Below, one piece after another: positions 36,864-49,615 of a stretch of DNA of 64,000 nucleotides. A model generated the notes under the pieces. That model searched no databases. It worked only from the letters and a program-made list of their open reading frames with translations, and was not told the DNA's origin. This DNA is from an uncultured Gammaproteobacteria bacterium. GTDB taxonomy: Bacteria; Pseudomonadota; Gammaproteobacteria; Magnimaribacterales; D2472. The DNA lies in the NCBI GenBank assembly GCA_964523375.1, contig CAZFYG010000002.1, positions 1,988 to 65,987 on the forward strand. Direction: 5' to 3'. Every line of letters starts with the position of its first letter. Positions within the stretch are counted from its first letter, which is position 1. The translations under genes and the position numbers were made by a program.

Positions 36864-36939
36864 TGGTGGGTCGCACAGGATTCGAACCTGTGACCAATTG
36901 GTTAAAAGCCAACTGCTCTACCAGCTGAGCTAGCGACCC
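36864..36939 (-). tRNA. tRNA-Lys (anticodon UUU), CCA encoded
   Basis: The minus strand reads GGGTCGCTAGCTCAGCTGGTAGAGCAGTTGGCTTTTAACCAATTGGTCACAGGTTCGAATCCTGTGCGACCCACCA. This is 76 nt with a 7-bp acceptor stem, anticodon loop CTTTTAA and T-loop GGTTCGAATCC, nearly identical to E. coli lysT. Its position after cpoB is as in E. coli. Confidence 0.97.
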
Positions 36940-36965: not shown

Positions 36966-37616
36966 TTATTCCATATTTTTCAATAACTGCAAGGCCTGTG
37001 ATGAAGCTGAGTTATTTGGGTACTCTCTAACTACAAATTTGTACTTGTCAGTTGCCATATTTAAATCATTATTTTTTACGTATATATCCCCTATTTTCTT
37101 GTGAGCTAGTGGCACTCTGTAATGATTTGGGTATGAAGAGATCAGATCTAAAAAATATTTTTTACTTATCTCAAGATTATTATTAATTAATGATATTTCG
37201 CCAAGCCAAAAAAAGGCTAAAGGTGATTTTTGATCATTTGCAAAACTTTCAACAAAAAATTTAAATAACTTGAATGCATCTTCATAATTCTGATCTTCTA
37301 ATGATTTTGTAGCAGCTGCGTAAACATCTTCTTCACTTTGAATATCACTCACCCCTTTAAATCTTATACTGCTATTTGCATTTATGGCATTACTTTCAGG
37401 TGTTTTATTATCCTCTTCATTAAAGGTTTCGTTTATAAGTTTTTCTATTAAATGGTTTTGGCTTTCAATTTGATTTCTTAGTTGAGCAATCTCGTTTTCA
37501 AGCTCTTGTATCTTTAAAAAAAGTATATCCGAAACGGTACTTTTTTCATCAGCGAAGCTAGGACAGGAAGCAATTAGCACAGCCAAAGTTAAAAGAGTAT
37601 TTTTTGTAATTCTCAT
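36966..37616 (-). CDS. cpoB: Tol-Pal system protein CpoB (YbgF)
   Basis: 216 aa with a signal sequence, a coiled coil (LKIQELENEIAQLRNQIESQNHLIEKL) and a C-terminal TPR domain. It is the last gene of the tol-pal cluster. The signal peptide contains LIASC, a possible lipobox. Confidence 0.8.
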   Translation of the reverse strand: MRITKNTLLTLAVLIASCPSFADEKSTVSDILFLKIQELENEIAQLRNQIESQNHLIEKLINETFNEEDNKTPESNAINANSSIRFKGVSDIQSEEDVYAAATKSLEDQNYEDAFKLFKFFVESFANDQKSPLAFFWLGEISLINNNLEISKKYFLDLISSYPNHYRVPLAHKKIGDIYVKNNDLNMATDKYKFVVREYPNNSASSQALQLLKNME

Positions 37617-37622
37617 CCTTTT

Positions 37623-38117
37623 CTAGTTAATCTCCGCCCTTCTATTTTTTGACCAACTTTCATCGTTTGAACCTGTTACAAGAGGATATTCTTCACCAAA
37701 ACTCTTCACTGTAACTCTATTATTACTGATTCCATTTAACAATAAATAATCTTTTACAGCATCACCCCGTCTCTGGCCAAGCGCTAGATTATATTCACGA
37801 GTGCCTCTCTCATCAGCGTGACCAGATACAGTAATAACCATATCTGAATTATCATTCATTGCTCGTACAACACTTTTTAGAGTTTGTATTGACTTGGTGG
37901 AAAGAGTAAATCTATCGAAATCAAAATAAACTACTGCATTGGTAGTTATAGGCTTTTCGTCATATGAAATTATAGTATCTTCTGCAACTGAAACTTCGAC
38001 ACTGCTTACAGTTGAATTATAGACAGATTCTTCTGTATTATTTGTGGTGCTGCAAGATACTGCAAACATGAGGAATGACACATAGAAAATATTTCTATTT
38101 TTTGATTGTATATACAT
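37623..38117 (-). CDS. pal: peptidoglycan-associated lipoprotein Pal
   Basis: 164 aa with a lipobox (FAVSCS) and an OmpA-like domain (VYFDFDRFTL...GHADERGTREYNLALGQRR...NRRAEI). Confidence 0.95.
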   Translation of the reverse strand: MYIQSKNRNIFYVSFLMFAVSCSTTNNTEESVYNSTVSSVEVSVAEDTIISYDEKPITTNAVVYFDFDRFTLSTKSIQTLKSVVRAMNDNSDMVITVSGHADERGTREYNLALGQRRGDAVKDYLLLNGISNNRVTVKSFGEEYPLVTGSNDESWSKNRRAEIN

Positions 38118-38135: not shown

Positions 38136-39410
38136 TTATCTTAAATATCCCGACCAAGAAGGCTCTCTAACCTCTCCAGAACTTGATGGCAGTCTGAATT
38201 TAGCACCGCTGAGGGTAACACCGGCAAGAAGTCCAACCTTATCTTCCTTAATTGCATAGATTATCACATTACCGTTAGGAGAAATACTTGGTGATTCATC
38301 TAAGCGAGATTCGGTTAAAGGTCTTGAAAAATTTTCATTGAAGTATTTGAGAGCAATCTTGAACTCTCCTTCGCTTCTTTGAACAAATACAATACCTTCA
38401 TTACTTGGAAGATAAGATGCTTTAGCATTATAACTCCCATCAAAGGTAAGTCTTTTAGGCTTTGTATTAAATTTTAATAAATCTATTTCGTATAACTGAG
38501 GCGATCCTGATCTTCCGGACGTAAATAATATTTTTTTACCATCTGGTGACCATGATGATTCAGTATCTATGGAGTAATGATTTGTTAAACGTGTTAGATT
38601 TTTATTTTCTAAATTAAGAATATATATTTCTGCATTTCCATCTTGATATAAAGTGAGAGATAAAAACTTCCCATCTGGAGAGAATGCTGGCGAGCTGATC
38701 TGATATTTATTTTTTACAGCAACCTCCCTACTTCCAGTTGCAATATTTTGAATAAATACTTTTGCTAATCCTGTCTCAAATGAAACATACGCTATTTCTT
38801 TAGAGTCAGGACTCCATGATGGAGAAATAATTGCGCTATTACTCTTTAGTAAGATCTGCTCATTCATACCATCGGCATCAGCTAGCATCAATTTATAAAC
38901 CTTTGCAGATCCTGCAACATCTTCGCTGACGTAAAGCATTTTTGTTGATGAAATCCCTTTTAAACCTGTTATTTCTTCATAAATACCGTCGCTCACATAG
39001 TGTGCTAACTGTCTAGTTTTATTTGGTATACCATATATTTTTGAAGATCTTATTTTTCTCTCTTTTACAGAGTCGTAGATATCATAAGAAACGGTGATAT
39101 TCATTTTATCTTTGCTATCAATCTTCCCTTTTAAAATATAATCAACACCAAGAAGTCTATAATTTTTATAATTTAATTCCTCTTGATATGCCTCTTCCTC
39201 CAAGAGATCATTGGAACTTAGAACTGAAAACTCACCTGTCCTTTGTAGGTCAGCTTTGATAATTGCACTAATTTCATTTGAAATTGAGGTTTGGCCATCA
39301 AAATTATGAATAGCAATTCTGTAAGGATTGTCAGAACTTTCTGTAATTTCAAGAACTAGCTCTGCATTTAAATTTAAGAAAACGAAGAAGAGATAAACAA
39401 AAATTTTCAT
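38136..39410 (-). CDS. tolB: Tol-Pal system beta-propeller protein TolB
   Basis: 424 aa with a signal peptide and repeated blades (SPSWSPDSKEIAYVS, SPAFSPDGKFLS, SWSPDGKKILFTS, SISPNGNVIIY). Confidence 0.95.
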   Translation of the reverse strand: MKIFVYLFFVFLNLNAELVLEITESSDNPYRIAIHNFDGQTSISNEISAIIKADLQRTGEFSVLSSNDLLEEEAYQEELNYKNYRLLGVDYILKGKIDSKDKMNITVSYDIYDSVKERKIRSSKIYGIPNKTRQLAHYVSDGIYEEITGLKGISSTKMLYVSEDVAGSAKVYKLMLADADGMNEQILLKSNSAIISPSWSPDSKEIAYVSFETGLAKVFIQNIATGSREVAVKNKYQISSPAFSPDGKFLSLTLYQDGNAEIYILNLENKNLTRLTNHYSIDTESSWSPDGKKILFTSGRSGSPQLYEIDLLKFNTKPKRLTFDGSYNAKASYLPSNEGIVFVQRSEGEFKIALKYFNENFSRPLTESRLDESPSISPNGNVIIYAIKEDKVGLLAGVTLSGAKFRLPSSSGEVREPSWSGYLR

Positions 39411-40063
39411 GAAGGATTGAAAGTGAGCATTATATTTTTAAAATTTGTCTGATATATTTTTATATCCATTTTGCTAAAAAAATTAAATGTTTCAACCCTT
39501 TTTACGGCTTTAATTGCTGAGTTATCAAACCTAATGTTGCCACTACTTTTAAGTAGAGACACATTGATTATCCTTCCATTTTTATTTATCTGAATTCTAA
39601 GGTCGCAAACTAAGCCATCTTGAATATTTTTTGGTTTTAACCATGCGCCTTCAACAGCATCAATAATCATTAGGCTAAATTTGTCTGTATTATTAATTTG
39701 TTCATTATTTGAGAAATTTATTTCTTCCTTGATTAAATTACTAACCTCAGACGTTGTATTTATAGTTGGCTCAAATTCTTTAGATTGAGTAGTTTTGGAA
39801 GTTAGTGTTTTTGAAGAAATAATCTTGATTTCACTATAGTTTTCTTGAGCTATAGGTTTTTCTATATTGTTTTTAATTGGGCTAATTTTTGCATCTTGCT
39901 CAAAAATTAAACTAACATCTATTGGGTTATTTAGAACAGGTCTCACTTTTTTTTCAGAATAGAAATAGCCAACAAAAAAAAGTATCAGAGAAGCATGTAT
40001 TAGAAAAGAAAATGTTGAAGCTATAATGTAATTAGTTTTAATTTGCATAACCTGTAGTAACAA
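39407..40063 (-). CDS. tolA: Tol-Pal system protein TolA (short form)
   Basis: 218 aa with an N-terminal TM (FSFLIHASLILFFVGYF), a short S/T/N-rich linker and a C-terminal TolA/TonB-like domain (VCDLRIQINKNGRIINVSLLKSSGNIRFDNSAIKAV). Position is between tolR and tolB. An alternative start lies at 40048. Confidence 0.75.
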   Translation of the reverse strand: MLLQVMQIKTNYIIASTFSFLIHASLILFFVGYFYSEKKVRPVLNNPIDVSLIFEQDAKISPIKNNIEKPIAQENYSEIKIISSKTLTSKTTQSKEFEPTINTTSEVSNLIKEEINFSNNEQINNTDKFSLMIIDAVEGAWLKPKNIQDGLVCDLRIQINKNGRIINVSLLKSSGNIRFDNSAIKAVKRVETFNFFSKMDIKIYQTNFKNIMLTFNPS

Positions 40064-40460
40064 TGCCTATTTTTTCGATCCCAACACTTTGAACAGCTGC
40101 CATAGCTTTAGCAACGCTATCAAAAGATACACTTTTATCACCTTTAAATACAACCTCAATATCAGGATTTGCCGAAAAGATAATTAAAGATTTTCTTTTT
40201 AATTCATCCAAATCTATGGGCAGTTGCTCTTCACCAATATTAATAAAGTATTCACCGCTCTTATTTATAGACACAACAAGTGGTTCATTTTGTACTGACA
40301 TTTTTGTAGTGTCGGTTTGAGGTAAATTAACCTCAACACCTTGTATCAATAAAGGGGAAAGAACCATAAAAATAATCAATAAAACCAACATGACATCAAT
40401 ATAAGGAACTACATTGATCTCGGCATTTAATTTTTTCTTTTTTCCTAATCTGTAAATCAT
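40038..40460 (-). CDS. tolR: Tol-Pal system protein TolR (ExbD family)
   Basis: 140 aa. Contains INVVPYIDVMLVLLIIFMV and a periplasmic domain. Synteny supports the call. Confidence 0.9.
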   Translation of the reverse strand: MIYRLGKKKKLNAEINVVPYIDVMLVLLIIFMVLSPLLIQGVEVNLPQTDTTKMSVQNEPLVVSINKSGEYFINIGEEQLPIDLDELKRKSLIIFSANPDIEVVFKGDKSVSFDSVAKAMAAVQSVGIEKIGIVTTGYAN

Positions 40461-41131
40461 TTATTTTTTAAAGTTTGCTTATAAAAAATGCTAGCAAGTT
40501 CTTCAGAAAATATGACAGTTGATTGTGAGATGCTTTCAAGCTCAGAAGCAAATTTGTTGTATGCCAGGACTGCAGGTATAGCTGCAAATAAGCCCATGGC
40601 TGTTGCTACAAGCGCCTCAGAGATACCAGGTGCAACTGCGTTTATTGTTGCCTGAGTAGCATCAGATAGACCCTGGAATGAGGTCATAATTCCCCAAACT
40701 GTGCCAAATAAACCAATATAAGGGCTCACGGAGCCAACATTAGCTAGAAATGATAAGTTAACATTCATCTGCTCCTCATCTGAAGCTATAGCCACTCTCA
40801 TAGAGCGATTAATACCCTCTAAATCTAACTCAGTTACCTCATTGCTTTTACTAAGAGTATTAAATTCATCAAAAGCACTTCTAAAAACATTTAAAGATCC
40901 ATAATTAATATTATTGTCATTTGGTATTTCATTATAAAGTGAATGTAAATCTTTCCCTGACCAGAATCTAGATAAAAAATCAGAGTTGATTTTTTTTATT
41001 TTTTTATAAAAGTTATAGCGTTCAATTATAACTATCCATGTCAATACTGAGGTTAATAAAAGGATTAACATGACTGATTTTACAACCAGTCCTGCCTCGA
41101 GAAATAAATTTAAAACAGAAATTTCATTCAT
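40457..41131 (-). CDS. tolQ: Tol-Pal system protein TolQ (MotA/ExbB family)
   Basis: 224 aa with three TM segments and the conserved SPYIGLFGTVWGIM...VAPGISEALVATAMGL. Confidence 0.9.
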   Translation of the reverse strand: MNEISVLNLFLEAGLVVKSVMLILLLTSVLTWIVIIERYNFYKKIKKINSDFLSRFWSGKDLHSLYNEIPNDNNINYGSLNVFRSAFDEFNTLSKSNEVTELDLEGINRSMRVAIASDEEQMNVNLSFLANVGSVSPYIGLFGTVWGIMTSFQGLSDATQATINAVAPGISEALVATAMGLFAAIPAVLAYNKFASELESISQSTVIFSEELASIFYKQTLKNK

Positions 41132-41140
41132 AATAATTTT

Positions 41141-41551
41141 TTAACTAAAAAGTAATAATAAATCATTGTGAAACGGTTTTGGTTTATTTGTTACCGAATT
41201 TATGAGGCAAACTTCAACCTCTGCAGAGCAAAGAATTTTATTTGAGTTACTTTCTTTTGCTGTTTGTGAAAATGTTAGTCTAGCATTTGAGTTTTTGTAG
41301 ACCGATGAGGAAATGATCAAGGCATCTTCAATTCTTGCTGGTGAAATAAAATTAATTCTCATCCTACGAACCACAAATACTAATTGTTGGTTTAACAGCT
41401 TTTCCTGAGAGATACCATTGTCTATGAGGAATTCGGTTCTAGATCTCTCAAAAAATTTTAAATAGTTTGCATGATACACAAAACCTTGAAAGTCAGTATC
41501 TTCACAATAAACCTTTAGGTGTAAATCCTTAGACTTGATATGTTTGTTCAT
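41141..41551 (-). CDS. ybgC: tol-pal-associated acyl-CoA thioesterase YbgC (4HBT hot-dog fold)
   Basis: 136 aa. VYCEDTDFQGFVYHANYLKFFERSRTEFL carries the 4HBT catalytic Asp region. It lies directly upstream of tolQ. Confidence 0.85.
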   Translation of the reverse strand: MNKHIKSKDLHLKVYCEDTDFQGFVYHANYLKFFERSRTEFLIDNGISQEKLLNQQLVFVVRRMRINFISPARIEDALIISSSVYKNSNARLTFSQTAKESNSNKILCSAEVEVCLINSVTNKPKPFHNDLLLLFS

Positions 41552-41954
41552 GAAGCTCTATATCTTTTTGAAAAAGCTCTAACAAAATTTGTATGAAATC
41601 TGGCCAGAGTAAATCAACAGTTATTAAATGATTTTGAATATTTGGGTTAATTGTTGATGCAAGCACTCTAACTTTTATAGGCCTTCTATTAAATTTGTAG
41701 ATGAGTGCAGGTATTAGATCCTCTCTATCGGAAGCTCTAATTACCTGATCCCACCAATCCTGAGGTGGTTCTCCACCGTCACCATACCTCTTGCATTCTA
41801 GACACCATCGCCCAAGTCGGAGATCGGGGAGTTCTTTTGTTCTGGTTTGTTCCAATATTCTTTTAACAGGATTTGTTAAATTTAGCTCTTGAACTAATAA
41901 ATTACCTATCTCTCTTTCAAAATTTGCACCTTTAGCTCTTGAGTTAACTGGCAA
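41529..41954 (-). CDS. Hjc-like PD-(D/E)XK nuclease, putative Holliday-junction resolvase
   Basis: 141 aa. The N-terminus reads SRAKGANFEREIGNLL (KG..fERe), followed by P43-D44 and E53-C-K55 (LPDLRLGRWCLECKRY). This gives the E...D...ExK catalytic pattern and spacing of archaeal Hjc and phage-type resolvases. The TTG start is 2 nt after the yebC stop, and the 3' end overlaps ybgC by 23 nt. It occupies the ruvCAB slot. Confidence 0.55.
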   Translation of the reverse strand: MPVNSRAKGANFEREIGNLLVQELNLTNPVKRILEQTRTKELPDLRLGRWCLECKRYGDGGEPPQDWWDQVIRASDREDLIPALIYKFNRRPIKVRVLASTINPNIQNHLITVDLLWPDFIQILLELFQKDIELHEQTYQV

Positions 41955-41956
41955 AA

Positions 41957-42694
41957 TTATTCTCCTGGTTCAAAATTATCAGGGAATTGAGCATTGGTAT
42001 GGACTTCTTGCACATCATCAAGGTCATCCATGAAATCCATAATTTTTAATATTTTTTCAGCCATTTCTTGATCTACCTCTATGAGAGTATCTGCTCGAAG
42101 TGTTGCCTCAGCATTTGATATTTCAATATCATTAGATTTTAAAATATCATTTATATTACTTAATTCATTGTGGGGGGTAATTACTTCAAAATAATCACCT
42201 TCATCAACTAAATCTTCTGCTCCTGCATCTAAAGCAATATCCATTAAATCATCTTCGGTTATTCCCTTGGCAACATGAATAATACCAAGCTTGTTGAATA
42301 AATAGGCTACAGAGCCATCAGTACCAAGATTTCCACCAAATTTCGAAAAAGCATGTCTAACATCGGAGACAGTCCTGTTTCGATTGTCTGTCATTGTTTC
42401 TACAAGGATAGCTACGCCTCCAGGGCCGTAACCTTCAAATACTATCTCCTCCAAGCTTCCGGTCTCTCCAGTACCTGAACCTTTTTGAATTGCCCTTTTT
42501 ATTGTATCTTTTGGCATATTTGATTGGTTCGCTTTTTCTAGCGCAAGCCTTAATCTCGGATTGTCCTCAGGATCAGGGCCACCTTTAGCTGCTACCGTTA
42601 TCTCTCTTATAACCTTAGTCCATACTTTAGCTCTTGAGGCATCTTGTCTTGCTTTGCGATGTTTTATATTTGCCCATTTAGAATGTCCTGCCAT
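41957..42694 (-). CDS. yebC: YebC/PmpR family DNA-binding regulator
   Basis: 245 aa starting MAGHSKWANIKHRKARQDASRAK...NPRLRLALEKA, the hallmark of the family. Confidence 0.9.
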   Translation of the reverse strand: MAGHSKWANIKHRKARQDASRAKVWTKVIREITVAAKGGPDPEDNPRLRLALEKANQSNMPKDTIKRAIQKGSGTGETGSLEEIVFEGYGPGGVAILVETMTDNRNRTVSDVRHAFSKFGGNLGTDGSVAYLFNKLGIIHVAKGITEDDLMDIALDAGAEDLVDEGDYFEVITPHNELSNINDILKSNDIEISNAEATLRADTLIEVDQEMAEKILKIMDFMDDLDDVQEVHTNAQFPDNFEPGE

Positions 42695-44464
42695 TTAAAC
42701 CTCTTCTATTAGTGTAGATTGTATTTTAAGCTCATCTAATTGAGTATTATCAACTTTGCTAGGTGCCTCTGTAAGAAGACATGTTGCGCTCTGTGTCTTA
42801 GGAAATGCTATTACATCTCTTATATTTGATGTGTTAGTTATAAGCATTACAAGCCTATCTAATCCAAAAGCAATACCTCCATGAGGCGGGCACCCAGAAG
42901 ATAAAGCATTTAAAAGGAATCCGAATTTATTATTCGCCTCTTCATTGGTTATTTTCAAAATATTGAAAACTGCTTTTTGCATTTCCTCTTGATAAATTCG
43001 CAAGGATCCTCCTCCAACCTCATAACCGTTTAAAACAATATCATATGCATATGCTATTGCGTCCTCAGGCCTATCAAGTAACTCGCCTGCTGAACATTTT
43101 GGCAAGGTAAATGGGTGATGAAGAGAGGTTAAGTTTCCTTGGCTATTCCTTTCAAACATAGGAAAGTTTACAACCCAACATGGAGCCCATTTAGAAGAAT
43201 ATAAATTTAGATCTTCTCCTAATTTTTTAATTAGACTGCTCATAGATAAATTAACGACATTTTTAGGCCCTGCTCCAAAAAATACCAAATCACCCTTCTC
43301 AAGACCAAGACTACTAATTATTCCTTCAACTGTTTGTTTATTTAAAAATTTTAGAATTGGAGATTGGAGACCATTTTCACTTCCATCGAGCTCGTTAACC
43401 TTTATATAAGCAAGGCCCTTGGCTCCTAGTTTTGAAACATACTTTGTATATTCATCTATTTTTCCTCTACTGAGGCTATTTCCACCAGGAATTTTTAAGG
43501 CCACTACTCTAGATTTCTCATCCTGGGCTGGACTTGAGAATACTTTAAACTCCTCATTCATTACTAATTCAGATATTTCTACCAAATGAAGAGGTATTCT
43601 TAAATCTGGTTTGTCGCATCCATATTTTTCCATCGAGTCATGCCAGTTAATAACAGGAAATTTATCTAGCTTATGGTTGCAAAATTTTTCAACTAACTCC
43701 CGGACCATTCCTTCTGCTAAATCAAGGATATATTCCTGATCAATAAATGATGCCTCTATGTCTATCTGAGTAAATTCAGGCTGCCTGTCTGCTCTTAAAT
43801 CCTCATCTCTAAAGCACCTTGCCACTTGATAATACTTATCAAGCCCTCCCATCATTAGCATTTGCTTAAAAAGTTGAGGTGATTGAGGTAAAGCAAAGAA
43901 GTTTCCAGGCTGAACTCTGCTAGGAAGAATATAATCCCTTGCGCCTTCAGGAGTTGCTCTTGTTAAAATAGGTGTTTCAATCTCATTGAAATCTCTATCA
44001 TCTAAATAATTTCTTATGGTAGACGATATCTTTGATCTTGTGACGATCCTTTGATTCATTTCAGGCCTTCTTAAATCAAGAACTCTATTTTTCAATCTAA
44101 CATCCTCATTAACCTCTTGGTAATCATCCAGAGGGAAGACCGGAGTAACCGCTTTGCTTAGAACTTTTATATGCTTAGCTTCTACCTCTATCTCACCAGT
44201 AGTCATGTTTGCATTAGATGTTCCTTCAAGCCTTTTGTTTACATGCCCATTTATTGATACTACAAACTCATTTCTTAAAGTTTCAGCAATTGCAAAAGAT
44301 TCTTTGGAATCAGGATTGAATACGATCTGGCAAATACCTTTAATATCCCTTAGATCTAAAAAAATAACACCTCCATGATCTCTTCTCTTATGAACCCAAC
44401 CGCAAAGTGTCACTTCTTGTTCTAAATTTTTAGTAGTTATTTCACCACAATAATGTGATCTCAT
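42695..44464 (-). CDS. aspS: aspartyl-tRNA synthetase (bacterial type with GAD insertion)
   Basis: 589 aa starting MRSHYCGE, with an OB anticodon-binding domain, motif 2 [19 protein letters not shown] and motif 3 [12 protein letters not shown]. Confidence 0.95.
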
Positions 44465-44480
44465 TTTTATTCCTCATTAA

Positions 44481-44759
44481 TTAAGTAATCTTATCTTGTT
44501 TATTGCCATTCTTGGAGTTAGTTGCCTTATTTACTGAAGATTTTTTTGAAGTATCTTCTGAAAGATTCTTTTTTTTACCTGTTTTAAAGTCTGTTTCATA
44601 CCATCCAGACCCCTTAAGTCTAAATGAAGGAGCTGAGATTAACTTTCCGAGAGAATCTTTCCCGCATTGCACACATTTTTTTAAAGGTTCATCACTAAAC
44701 TTCTGAAGAGTTTCTAATTGATGTCCACAATTTGAACATTTATATTCATAAATCGGCAT
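44481..44759 (-). CDS. FmdB-family zinc-ribbon protein
   Basis: 92 aa. [13 protein letters not shown]...KCVQCG shows the CxxC...CxxC putative regulatory zinc-ribbon signature, followed by a lysine-rich tail. Confidence 0.75.
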
Positions 44760-48595: not shown

Positions 48596-49615
48596 TTATT
48601 TTGTATCTTTAGATTTTGCCTTTGATGCTATGTAAGTAGATCTTATTTCGCTAATAAGGCCATCTCTAATTTTTGTATTTTCTTTAAGATATAAGCTAGC
48701 TTTAACTTTACCTTGACCAATAGTCTCACCATTTAACTTATAAAAGGCGCCAGACTTATCTACCAAACCGAGCTTGTGACCAAAATCTAGTATTTCCCCT
48801 TCTTGATTAATGCCCAGGCCATACATTATCTGGAACTCAGCTTGCTTAAATGGAGGTGATACTTTATTTTTTACTACTTTTACCCTAGTTTCATTACCCA
48901 TAACCTCATCACCTTCTTTTACTGATCCTATTCTTCTTATATCTAAACGAACAGATGAGTAAAATTTAAGAGCATTACCGCCAGTAGTAGTTTCTGGACT
49001 TCCGAACATCACACCAATTTTCATTCTAATCTGATTAATAAATACTACCGTGGCTCCTGATCTTTGAATGTTGCCAGTTATCTTTCTTAAAGCCTGTGAC
49101 ATTAACCTAGCTTGAAGCCCAACATGATGGTCCCCCATCTCTCCCTCTATTTCTGCTCTTGGAACTAAGGCGGCAACAGAGTCGATTATTACCAAATCAA
49201 CACTTTTAGATTTTACTAATATGTCAGCAACTTCTAGTGCCTGTTCACCCGTATCTGGCTGAGATAACAATAACTCATCGACATTAACTCCAAGTTTCTC
49301 AGCATACTGTGGATCTAACGCATGCTCTGCATCAATAAATGCACAAGTACCGCCTGCTTTCTGACATTGAGCTATTATCTGAAGTGTTAAAGTTGTTTTA
49401 CCAGAAGACTCTGGACCATATATTTCAGTAACTCTTCCTTTTGGGATTCCGCCAATGCCAAGGGCAATGTCTAAACCTAACGACCCTGTTGAGATTGATG
49501 GTATATCAACTAATTCCTTATCACCCATCCTCATTACAGTGCCTTTTCCAAACTGACTGTCTATATCAGCCAATGTATCCTTCAATGATTTTTTTGTGTC
49601 TTTTAATTTAGCCAT
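48596..49615 (-). CDS. recA: recombinase RecA
   Basis: 339 aa. Contains [28 protein letters not shown] (Walker A) and the L2 region, collinear with E. coli RecA. Confidence 0.97.

Follow-up and report, generated by a model that had tools for sequence, protein, structure and literature searches.

How Holliday junctions are resolved in bacteria of the SAR86 order (Magnimaribacterales) is a question raised by a small gene, here called X, that lies in a 64,000-nucleotide stretch of DNA from an uncultured Gammaproteobacteria bacterium of this order (GenBank assembly GCA_964523375.1, contig CAZFYG010000002.1, positions 1,988 to 65,987; this whole stretch is referred to as the window). SAR86 is free-living and among the most abundant lineages of the surface ocean, yet its published marker tables lack RuvA, RuvB and RuvC and are silent on how SAR86 resolves junctions, which makes X the obvious candidate for the missing function. 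The gene occupies 41529..41954 on the minus strand, between yebC and ybgC, and encodes a nuclease of 141 amino acids of the PF24608 (PDDEXK_15) family with an Hjc-like fold, a candidate Holliday junction resolvase, as judged from Pfam, PHROG, an AlphaFold2 (AF2) model and the ratio of nonsynonymous to synonymous substitution rates (dN/dS). A preliminary description of the window had proposed that RuvC, and possibly the whole RuvABC system, was displaced in situ by a protein with a restriction-endonuclease fold, and every part of this proposal that can be tested in silico was upheld. We consider it fairly probable that a phage-derived, Hjc-like junction nuclease displaced ruvCAB at its own locus in the ancestor of SAR86.

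A nuclease gene in the place of ruvCAB

In Escherichia coli, ruvC directly follows yebC, as the preliminary description had stated, and the order that it gives for Pseudomonas aeruginosa is yebC-ruvCAB-ybgC. Operons of yebC and ruvC occur in many bacteria, and in STRING the partners ranked highest for RuvA, RuvB and RuvC are YebC, YbgC, TolB, TolQ and TolR (PMC3403352), a partnership that a widespread yebC-ruvCAB-ybgC-tol order would yield. In the window, the interval between yebC and ybgC is filled by X. Searches of the 64-kb window by tblastn with the E. coli proteins found no RuvA, RuvB or RuvC, the best RuvB match having an E-value of 0.77 and RuvC giving none at E ≤ 10, while the YebC control in the same search reached 2.7e-81; the earlier impression that no open reading frame (ORF) of the window resembles RuvA or RuvB is thereby borne out. 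E. coli RecG also gave no tblastn match within the window, a result that is uninformative on the genome as a whole.

The same arrangement recurs in related genomes. These were scanned as one genome per GTDB species with a narrow SAR86-type alignment as the query (the broad alignment being too diverse), and the scan is therefore biased to SAR86 and silent on chromosomal carriage elsewhere. A relative of X is carried by 231 genomes, and the best 80 of these 231, whose labels are without exception either SAR86 cluster or unclassified marine (gamma)proteobacterial metagenome-assembled or single-amplified genomes, were inspected as 12-kb loci. The order aspS>yebC>X>ybgC>tolQ>tolR is found in 80 of 80 loci, save for truncation at contig ends, so that X sits in the yebC-ybgC interval in every SAR86 species genome inspected, and RuvA, RuvB and RuvC are absent from all 80 loci. 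Even divergent lineages with 55-61% identity to X (P0122, P0337 and P0383) retain the yebC-X-ybgC arrangement. Kept flanking synteny around a different gene at the same position, one mark of a displacement in situ, is seen in 80 of 80 loci when these are set beside the yebC-ruvC order of E. coli.

A lack of RuvAB is reported for less than 2% of sequenced bacteria, mostly parasites with reduced genomes (PMC3403352). For SAR86, Ramfelt et al. (2024) list 27 markers as systematically absent from 732 environmental genomes, and by their Table S1 the closed genome of HIMB1674 lacks PF01330 and PF07499 (RuvA), PF05491 (RuvB) and PF02075 (RuvC), as do nearly all of the environmental SAR86 genomes (PMC11582366). 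The same CheckM-based table has RadA, RecN, MutS domains I, II and IV, the MutL C-terminal domain and the Rep helicase missing order-wide, and RecF, RecO, RecR and YqgF present (PMC11582366). Because RecA, RecF, RecO and RecR are retained, junctions should still form in SAR86. Among 47 genome columns of Table S1, two genomes are positive for both RuvA and RuvC, and one of these together with a third genome is positive for RuvB; these ruv-positive genomes possess between some and most of the remaining 'missing' markers as well (PMC11582366), and they may be mis-assigned or basal. The ruv genes are unmentioned in the main text of Ramfelt et al. (PMC11582366). In the searchable literature, we found no paper that connects SAR86 to ruvC or to Holliday junctions, none that mentions PDDEXK_15 or PF24608, and no SAR86 paper on ruvA, ruvB or recG, or on mutS, mutL or recN.

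As a separate observation, the recombination and mismatch-repair set of SAR86 is unusually stripped-down for a free-living bacterium.

Gene structure, composition and selection

Gene X is tightly packed between its neighbours. As had been described before, its TTG start lies 2 nt past the stop of yebC, which ends at 41957 including the stop codon, and its 3' end overlaps ybgC, which starts at 41551, by 23 nt; the motifs noted previously were also recovered, the translation reading K8-G9-x2-F12-E13-R14-E15, P43-D44 and E53-C54-K55. A Shine-Dalgarno-like AGGAG, read from the sequence, is located at 41962..41966 on the minus strand, 7 nt 5' of the TTG and within the last codons of yebC, which suggests translational coupling of X to yebC. 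In a promoter and terminator scan of the block, sites were no commoner than in shuffled sequence, and none fell between X and either yebC or ybgC. The strand opposite X holds no ORF of at least 50 amino acids.

Across the order, the gene is kept with little change. A homology search with X, by which the source organism is recognised as SAR86, returned 526 relatives, and the best 120 of these 526 are 72-99% identical and almost all 141 amino acids long. The position of the start codon is shared in 80 of 80 species (TTG in 61, ATG in 16 and GTG in 3), most of the examined upstream sequences have a GGAG-, GAGG- or AAAG-like Shine-Dalgarno motif within the 3' end of yebC, and the length is 140-142 amino acids in 80 of 81 sequences. 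The median dN/dS is 0.067 (Nei-Gojobori method, 327 unsaturated pairs), with synonymous sites near saturation. As far as comparative sequence evidence goes, X is under strong purifying selection and is translated across the SAR86 order.

These data also bear on the possibility that X is non-functional, either a TTG ORF that arose by chance or a remnant in decay at the site of a ruvCAB deletion. Its non-canonical start and the fact that public annotations of the protein mostly read 'hypothetical protein' would fit such a view. However, the shared start position, with ATG in 16 species, the conserved length, the Shine-Dalgarno motifs found in most loci, the strong constraint on amino-acid changes, an active site with three residues that never vary (E13, D44 and K55) and a fourth, E53, that is shared by at least 90% of the aligned proteins, and a confidently predicted fold all speak against it. 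This explanation is effectively refuted already, and the probability that we leave to it is negligible.

The base composition of X offers no sign of foreign origin. The preliminary description had counted 33 of 60 G+C at 41761..41820 and had offered two explanations, foreign DNA or a composition rich in W, G, P, R and D. The count is correct and places this segment in the top 0.2% of 60-nt windows, and the amino-acid explanation stands. The G+C content of the whole gene is 0.359, with 0.51 at first (GC1) and 0.239 at third codon positions (GC3), and neighbouring genes have a GC3 of 0.21-0.29. Because the GC3 of X matches that of its neighbours, the local peak is an effect of amino-acid composition at first codon positions, and G+C richness as a sign of foreign DNA was rejected.

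Family, active site and predicted fold

By family, X belongs to PDDEXK_15. It matches Pfam PF24608, described as a 'phage putative PDDEXK endonuclease', with 41.8 bits over residues 4-97 (the gathering cut-off being 27 bits), and among the PHROGs it matches phrog_244 (2.4e-13), which carries the label 'RusA-like Holliday junction resolvase'. All 98 aligned relatives match both PF24608 and phrog_244, and 14 of the 98 also match phrog_2002, 'Holliday junction resolvase'. The family is compact: when 1.84 billion cluster representatives were searched exhaustively, only 263 of them matched at E ≤ 1e-3. Across the 98 diverse members, R6, K8, G9, E13, R32, D44, K55 and P82 are invariant, and R14, L34, Q36, E53, R56, Y57, W67 and Q70 are conserved in at least 90%. 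The four presumed catalytic codons fall within 41790..41918 on the minus strand (E13 at 41916-41918, D44 at 41823-41825, E53 at 41796-41798 and K55 at 41790-41792), and they are assigned from this conservation and from alignment to Pyrococcus furiosus Hjc.

The AF2 model of X has a mean predicted local distance difference test score (pLDDT) of 84.9 and a predicted template modelling score (pTM) of 0.82. Its order of elements, a helix with E13, a strand with D44 at its start, a strand with E53 and K55, a helix and a further strand, is the canonical PD-(D/E)XK layout. When the model is compared with the PDB by Foldseek, archaeal Hjc takes 15 of the 17 top places with probabilities of up to 1.0, the matched entries being those of Archaeoglobus fulgidus (2wcw and 2wiw), P. 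furiosus (1gef) and Sulfolobus tokodaii (2eo0). At the level of sequence, a phmmer search of X against PDB sequences gave no match and Hjc is reached only by the family profile, for which P. furiosus Hjc (1gef) ranks first with an E-value of 0.05. In hhalign, the family aligns with P. furiosus Hjc at 89% probability (E 2e-6), and E13, D44, E53 and K55 fall onto E9, D33, E46 and K48, which we take to be the residues identified as catalytic by mutagenesis. Furthermore, a viral structure library contains full-length matches to X with a template modelling score (TM-score) of 0.80, and several of the matched proteins are named Holliday junction resolvases.

Two earlier statements, that X has no RuvC features and that it carries instead the E/D/ExK arrangement of archaeal Hjc, are in line with these results: no RuvC (PF02075) match was found in the Pfam and NCBIfam searches, and Foldseek, the family profile and hhalign agree on Hjc, with the catalytic residues in register in the profile alignments. 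The comparison by profile and by Foldseek on an AlphaFold model, which had been suggested as a check for similarity to PD-(D/E)XK resolvases, likewise gave Hjc as the best match of solved structure. Other resolvase families were not recovered. X has no match to Pfam RusA (PF05866) at E ≤ 10, the term 'RusA-like' being only the text label of PHROG 244, and none to Pfam RecU (PF03838), and RecU chains are absent from the top 50 Foldseek matches in the PDB. Weak Pfam Hjc matches occur in 12 of the 98 relatives (best E 1.7e-4), and the NCBIfam search with X returned nothing meaningful. By every available structural criterion, the predicted model makes X an Hjc-type nuclease, and by family it is a PDDEXK_15 protein, not an Hjc. 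Weak matches of its C-terminal part to Ribosomal_L25p (E 0.009, below the cut-off) were dismissed as chance.

Phage relatives and the origin of X

The relatives of X outside SAR86 are borne by bacteriophages and mobile elements. The closest of them, P0132, has 47-50% identity and lies on a contig catalogued as viral in IMG/VR, where its gene adjoins those of a DUF3799 protein and a Toprim/VapE primase; the relatives of X in IMG/VR reach 40-46% identity only. In a neighbour-joining tree, the SAR86 X genes are monophyletic and P0132 is their sister. Cultured Roseobacter phages are among the carriers of the PDDEXK_15 family, and in Roseobacter phage CRP-811 the PDDEXK_15 gene is followed by those of another PD-(D/E)XK nuclease, SSB and a RepA helicase. 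In addition, two marine temperate elements share the order integrase, YqaJ exonuclease with Sak annealase, primase-helicase, DUF3310, PDDEXK_15 and PDDEXK_14, and both have a small terminase gene some 6-7 kb farther along. A phage origin of X is supported by the phylogeny and by the genomic context of its relatives. The simplest history would be that the ancestor of SAR86 captured a nuclease from a phage recombination module once, and that the gene was then inherited vertically until its composition had been fully ameliorated.

Some further observations concern these relatives. In the marine temperate-phage loci L085 (8654..9073) and L087 (8642..9067), a second small PD-(D/E)XK gene (PF24579, PDDEXK_14) stands about 250 nt past PDDEXK_15, and of this pair SAR86 retains the first only. 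A distant family member with 28% identity, ORF70 of Salmonella phage S144 (L117, 3998..4426), is annotated as a 'putative resolvase' and has been linked to D14 of phage T5. A T5-like D14 protein is also found among the viral fold matches of X, and D14 of T5 may be a further member of this superfamily.

Comparison with known junction resolvases

Resolvases of the Hjc type are well known from archaea and archaeal viruses, where they have been characterised in depth. Like X, archaeal Hjc (PF01870; 1gef, 2wcw and 2eo0) is a protein of about 125-140 amino acids with a PD-(D/E)XK alpha-beta-beta-beta-alpha-beta core and an N-terminal K-G-x3-E-R motif, and its catalytic Glu/Asp/Glu-x-Lys residues correspond one to one. 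Unlike Hjc, X carries an additional W-W-x-Q motif and, at its C-terminus, a helical segment, both of which are common to its phage relatives, and it is distributed in bacteria and phages; that it forms a dimer and cleaves junctions is presumed by analogy. The closest counterparts are the PDDEXK_15 proteins of phages (CRP-811 gp13 and the marine temperate-phage proteins P0148, P0288 and P0132), which belong to the same family with 30-50% identity, the same length and motifs and a TM-score of 0.80. Their genes lie in or beside replication and recombination clusters on viral contigs, whereas those of SAR86 are a chromosomal clade of their own within a housekeeping operon.

RusA is a phage-derived junction resolvase of cryptic prophages that is able to substitute for RuvC in a bacterium, as is known from the activation of prophage RusA in E. 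coli. Its fold differs from that of X, and the 'RusA-like' label of PHROG 244 is functional, not structural. Moreover, RusA is normally silent on its prophage, whereas X has become a fixed part of a core operon. In Firmicutes and Mollicutes, RecU provides the precedent of a PD-(D/E)XK-fold resolvase that replaces RuvC in bacteria (PMC3403352). X differs from it in having no sequence or fold match to RecU, in the accompanying loss of RuvAB and in its location in the ruvCAB slot.

Proposed mechanism and alternative explanations

The proposal builds on the family, fold, active site, fixation, selection and phage ancestry of X, on the identity of the slot that it occupies and, from the literature, on the lack of RuvABC across the lineage. 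According to it, the SAR86 ancestor would have captured the phage gene, which came to stand between yebC and ybgC instead of ruvC-ruvA-ruvB. X would bind, as a homodimer, the four-way junctions formed by RecA and RecFOR, each subunit contributing a metal-ion site made up of E13, D44, E53 and K55, and the dimer would introduce paired nicks in opposite strands to leave ligatable duplexes. The gene would be expressed from the old ruvC position with its TTG start, probably coupled to yebC, within the aspS-yebC-X-ybgC-tol-pal string, and its product would be the only dedicated junction-resolving activity of a genome that lacks RuvA, RuvB and RuvC. Dimerisation, junction specificity and functional substitution for RuvC are what the analogy with known resolvases would lead one to expect, and we infer the resolvase activity itself from homology, position and phage context. 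Extended to the whole order, the proposal becomes more tentative: it is possible, though we would not call it the likelier case, that SAR86 as a whole recombines by means of RecA, RecFOR and a single phage-derived Hjc-type resolvase, without RuvAB, RuvC, RadA and RecN.

A number of points weigh against the replacement of RuvCAB by X. The similarity of X to Hjc is remote: the Foldseek values are modest (E about 4e-3, TM-scores of 0.45-0.59), X has no Pfam Hjc (PF01870) match even at E ≤ 10, and weak matches to Mrr_cat, the catalytic domain of the Mrr restriction nuclease, occur in 12 of the 98 relatives (best E 2e-4). In JGI and PHROGs, the name 'Holliday junction resolvase' is an annotation rather than the outcome of a test, and we know of no biochemical test of any PDDEXK_15 member. 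Branch migration would also have to proceed without RuvAB and RadA. The absence of RuvABC from this particular genome is deduced from its lineage and was seen directly within the 64-kb window. In addition, the loss of RuvABC could be simple streamlining without functional replacement, as RadA, RecN, MutS, MutL and Rep have also been lost.

Some of these points lend themselves to a different account, in which X is a domesticated phage PD-(D/E)XK nuclease with another task on DNA, for instance at stalled or reversed forks, flaps or D-loops or in repair nicking, and its presence in the ruvCAB slot is a historical accident of phage insertion or deletion. The fold and active site are generic to PD-(D/E)XK proteins and the family is named merely 'putative PDDEXK endonuclease'; several other repair systems have been lost in SAR86, which makes it less clear what selective need X would meet, and in the phage relatives the work may be divided with the PDDEXK_14 nuclease encoded just downstream. 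However, the best structural and profile matches are specifically to Hjc junction resolvases, over flap or repair nucleases, the exact positional exchange of a resolvase operon for a resolvase-like gene would be an improbable coincidence, and the retention of RecA and RecFOR means that junctions need handling. We therefore regard another task as rather unlikely, although it deserves to be kept in mind. A defence or restriction-type (Mrr-like) nuclease, or a selfish or toxin gene from a prophage remnant, is far less probable still. Apart from the weak Mrr_cat matches, the phage-borne or mobile-element location of the relatives could be cited for it, but X matches none of the PADLOC anti-phage defence families and occupies a fixed, order-wide position among housekeeping genes, where the 80 inspected loci contain no methyltransferase, antitoxin, integrase, phage or other mobile-element gene near it and dN/dS is as low as 0.07. 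Defence genes are typically patchy in distribution and turn over fast, which is the opposite pattern.

Significance

That RuvC can be replaced by an unrelated resolvase is already known, from RecU in Firmicutes and from prophage RusA in E. coli. What appears to be new is that a phage-derived, Hjc-like gene should have displaced the entire ruvCAB operon in situ across a bacterial order, that this should have occurred in a free-living and globally dominant lineage, and that a concrete functional hypothesis for PF24608 follows. If displacement by X is true, it offers a clean case in which a phage gene with an archaeal-type fold ousted a core repair operon in situ. If, further, the whole order recombines with the minimal set of RecA, RecFOR and X, a lone archaeal or viral-type junction resolvase would suffice for the maintenance of a bacterial chromosome, and it would have been the arrival of a phage gene at the ruvCAB locus itself that allowed RuvABC to be lost. 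The case also matters for CheckM-style completeness estimates and for automated annotation, since public records of the SAR86 protein mostly read 'hypothetical protein' or 'putative PDDEXK endonuclease'. Confirmation would provide the first functional assignment for PF24608 and PHROG 244, both widely found among marine phages, and as the cultured strain HIMB1674 exists, the hypothesis is directly testable.

The flanking block

The genes around X form a continuous block on the minus strand, and the order given in the preliminary description, aspS-yebC-X-ybgC-tolQRAB-pal-cpoB-tRNA-Lys, was reproduced by Pfam searches of the window ORFs and by ARAGORN and Rfam. On the upstream side, it begins with aspS (aspartyl-tRNA synthetase, 42695..44464), which is followed by yebC (TACO1/YebC family, 41957..42694, 52% identity to E. 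coli YebC) directly upstream of X. Downstream of X, the first gene of the tol-pal cluster is ybgC, encoding a 4HBT thioesterase (41141..41551), and it is followed by tolQ (40457-41131), tolR (40038-40460), tolA (39407-40063, with a TonB_C-type domain), tolB (38136-39410), pal (OmpA, 37623-38117) and cpoB/ybgF, encoding a TPR protein (36966-37616), all of them identified by Pfam; a tRNA-Lys(UUU) gene found by ARAGORN and Rfam (36864..36939) closes the block. The tol-pal gene order of the window is matched in the SAR86 loci L001-L003 and L095.

Among the individual genes, the tolA homologue (39407..40063) is short, with 218 amino acids, is recognised only through its TonB_2/TonB_C-type C-terminal domain, and has a TTG start that overlaps tolR. 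Directly 5' of aspS lies the first gene of the same-strand string, which encodes a 92-residue CxxC...CxxC zinc-ribbon protein (44481..44759, minus strand); its counterpart in related loci is Pfam Zn_ribbon_8, and its position is kept across SAR86 loci. The recA gene is found on the same strand at 48596..49615, about 6.6 kb upstream of X, and the recA...aspS-yebC-X neighbourhood was found again in the SAR86 contigs L001-L003 and L095, so that the retained recombinase and the candidate resolvase are near neighbours. Finally, the metagenome gene call P0141 fuses the C-terminus of yebC to the N-terminus of X, and in L095 (7497..9258) aspS is split into two ORFs; both are probably assembly or frameshift artefacts of long-read or low-coverage contigs.

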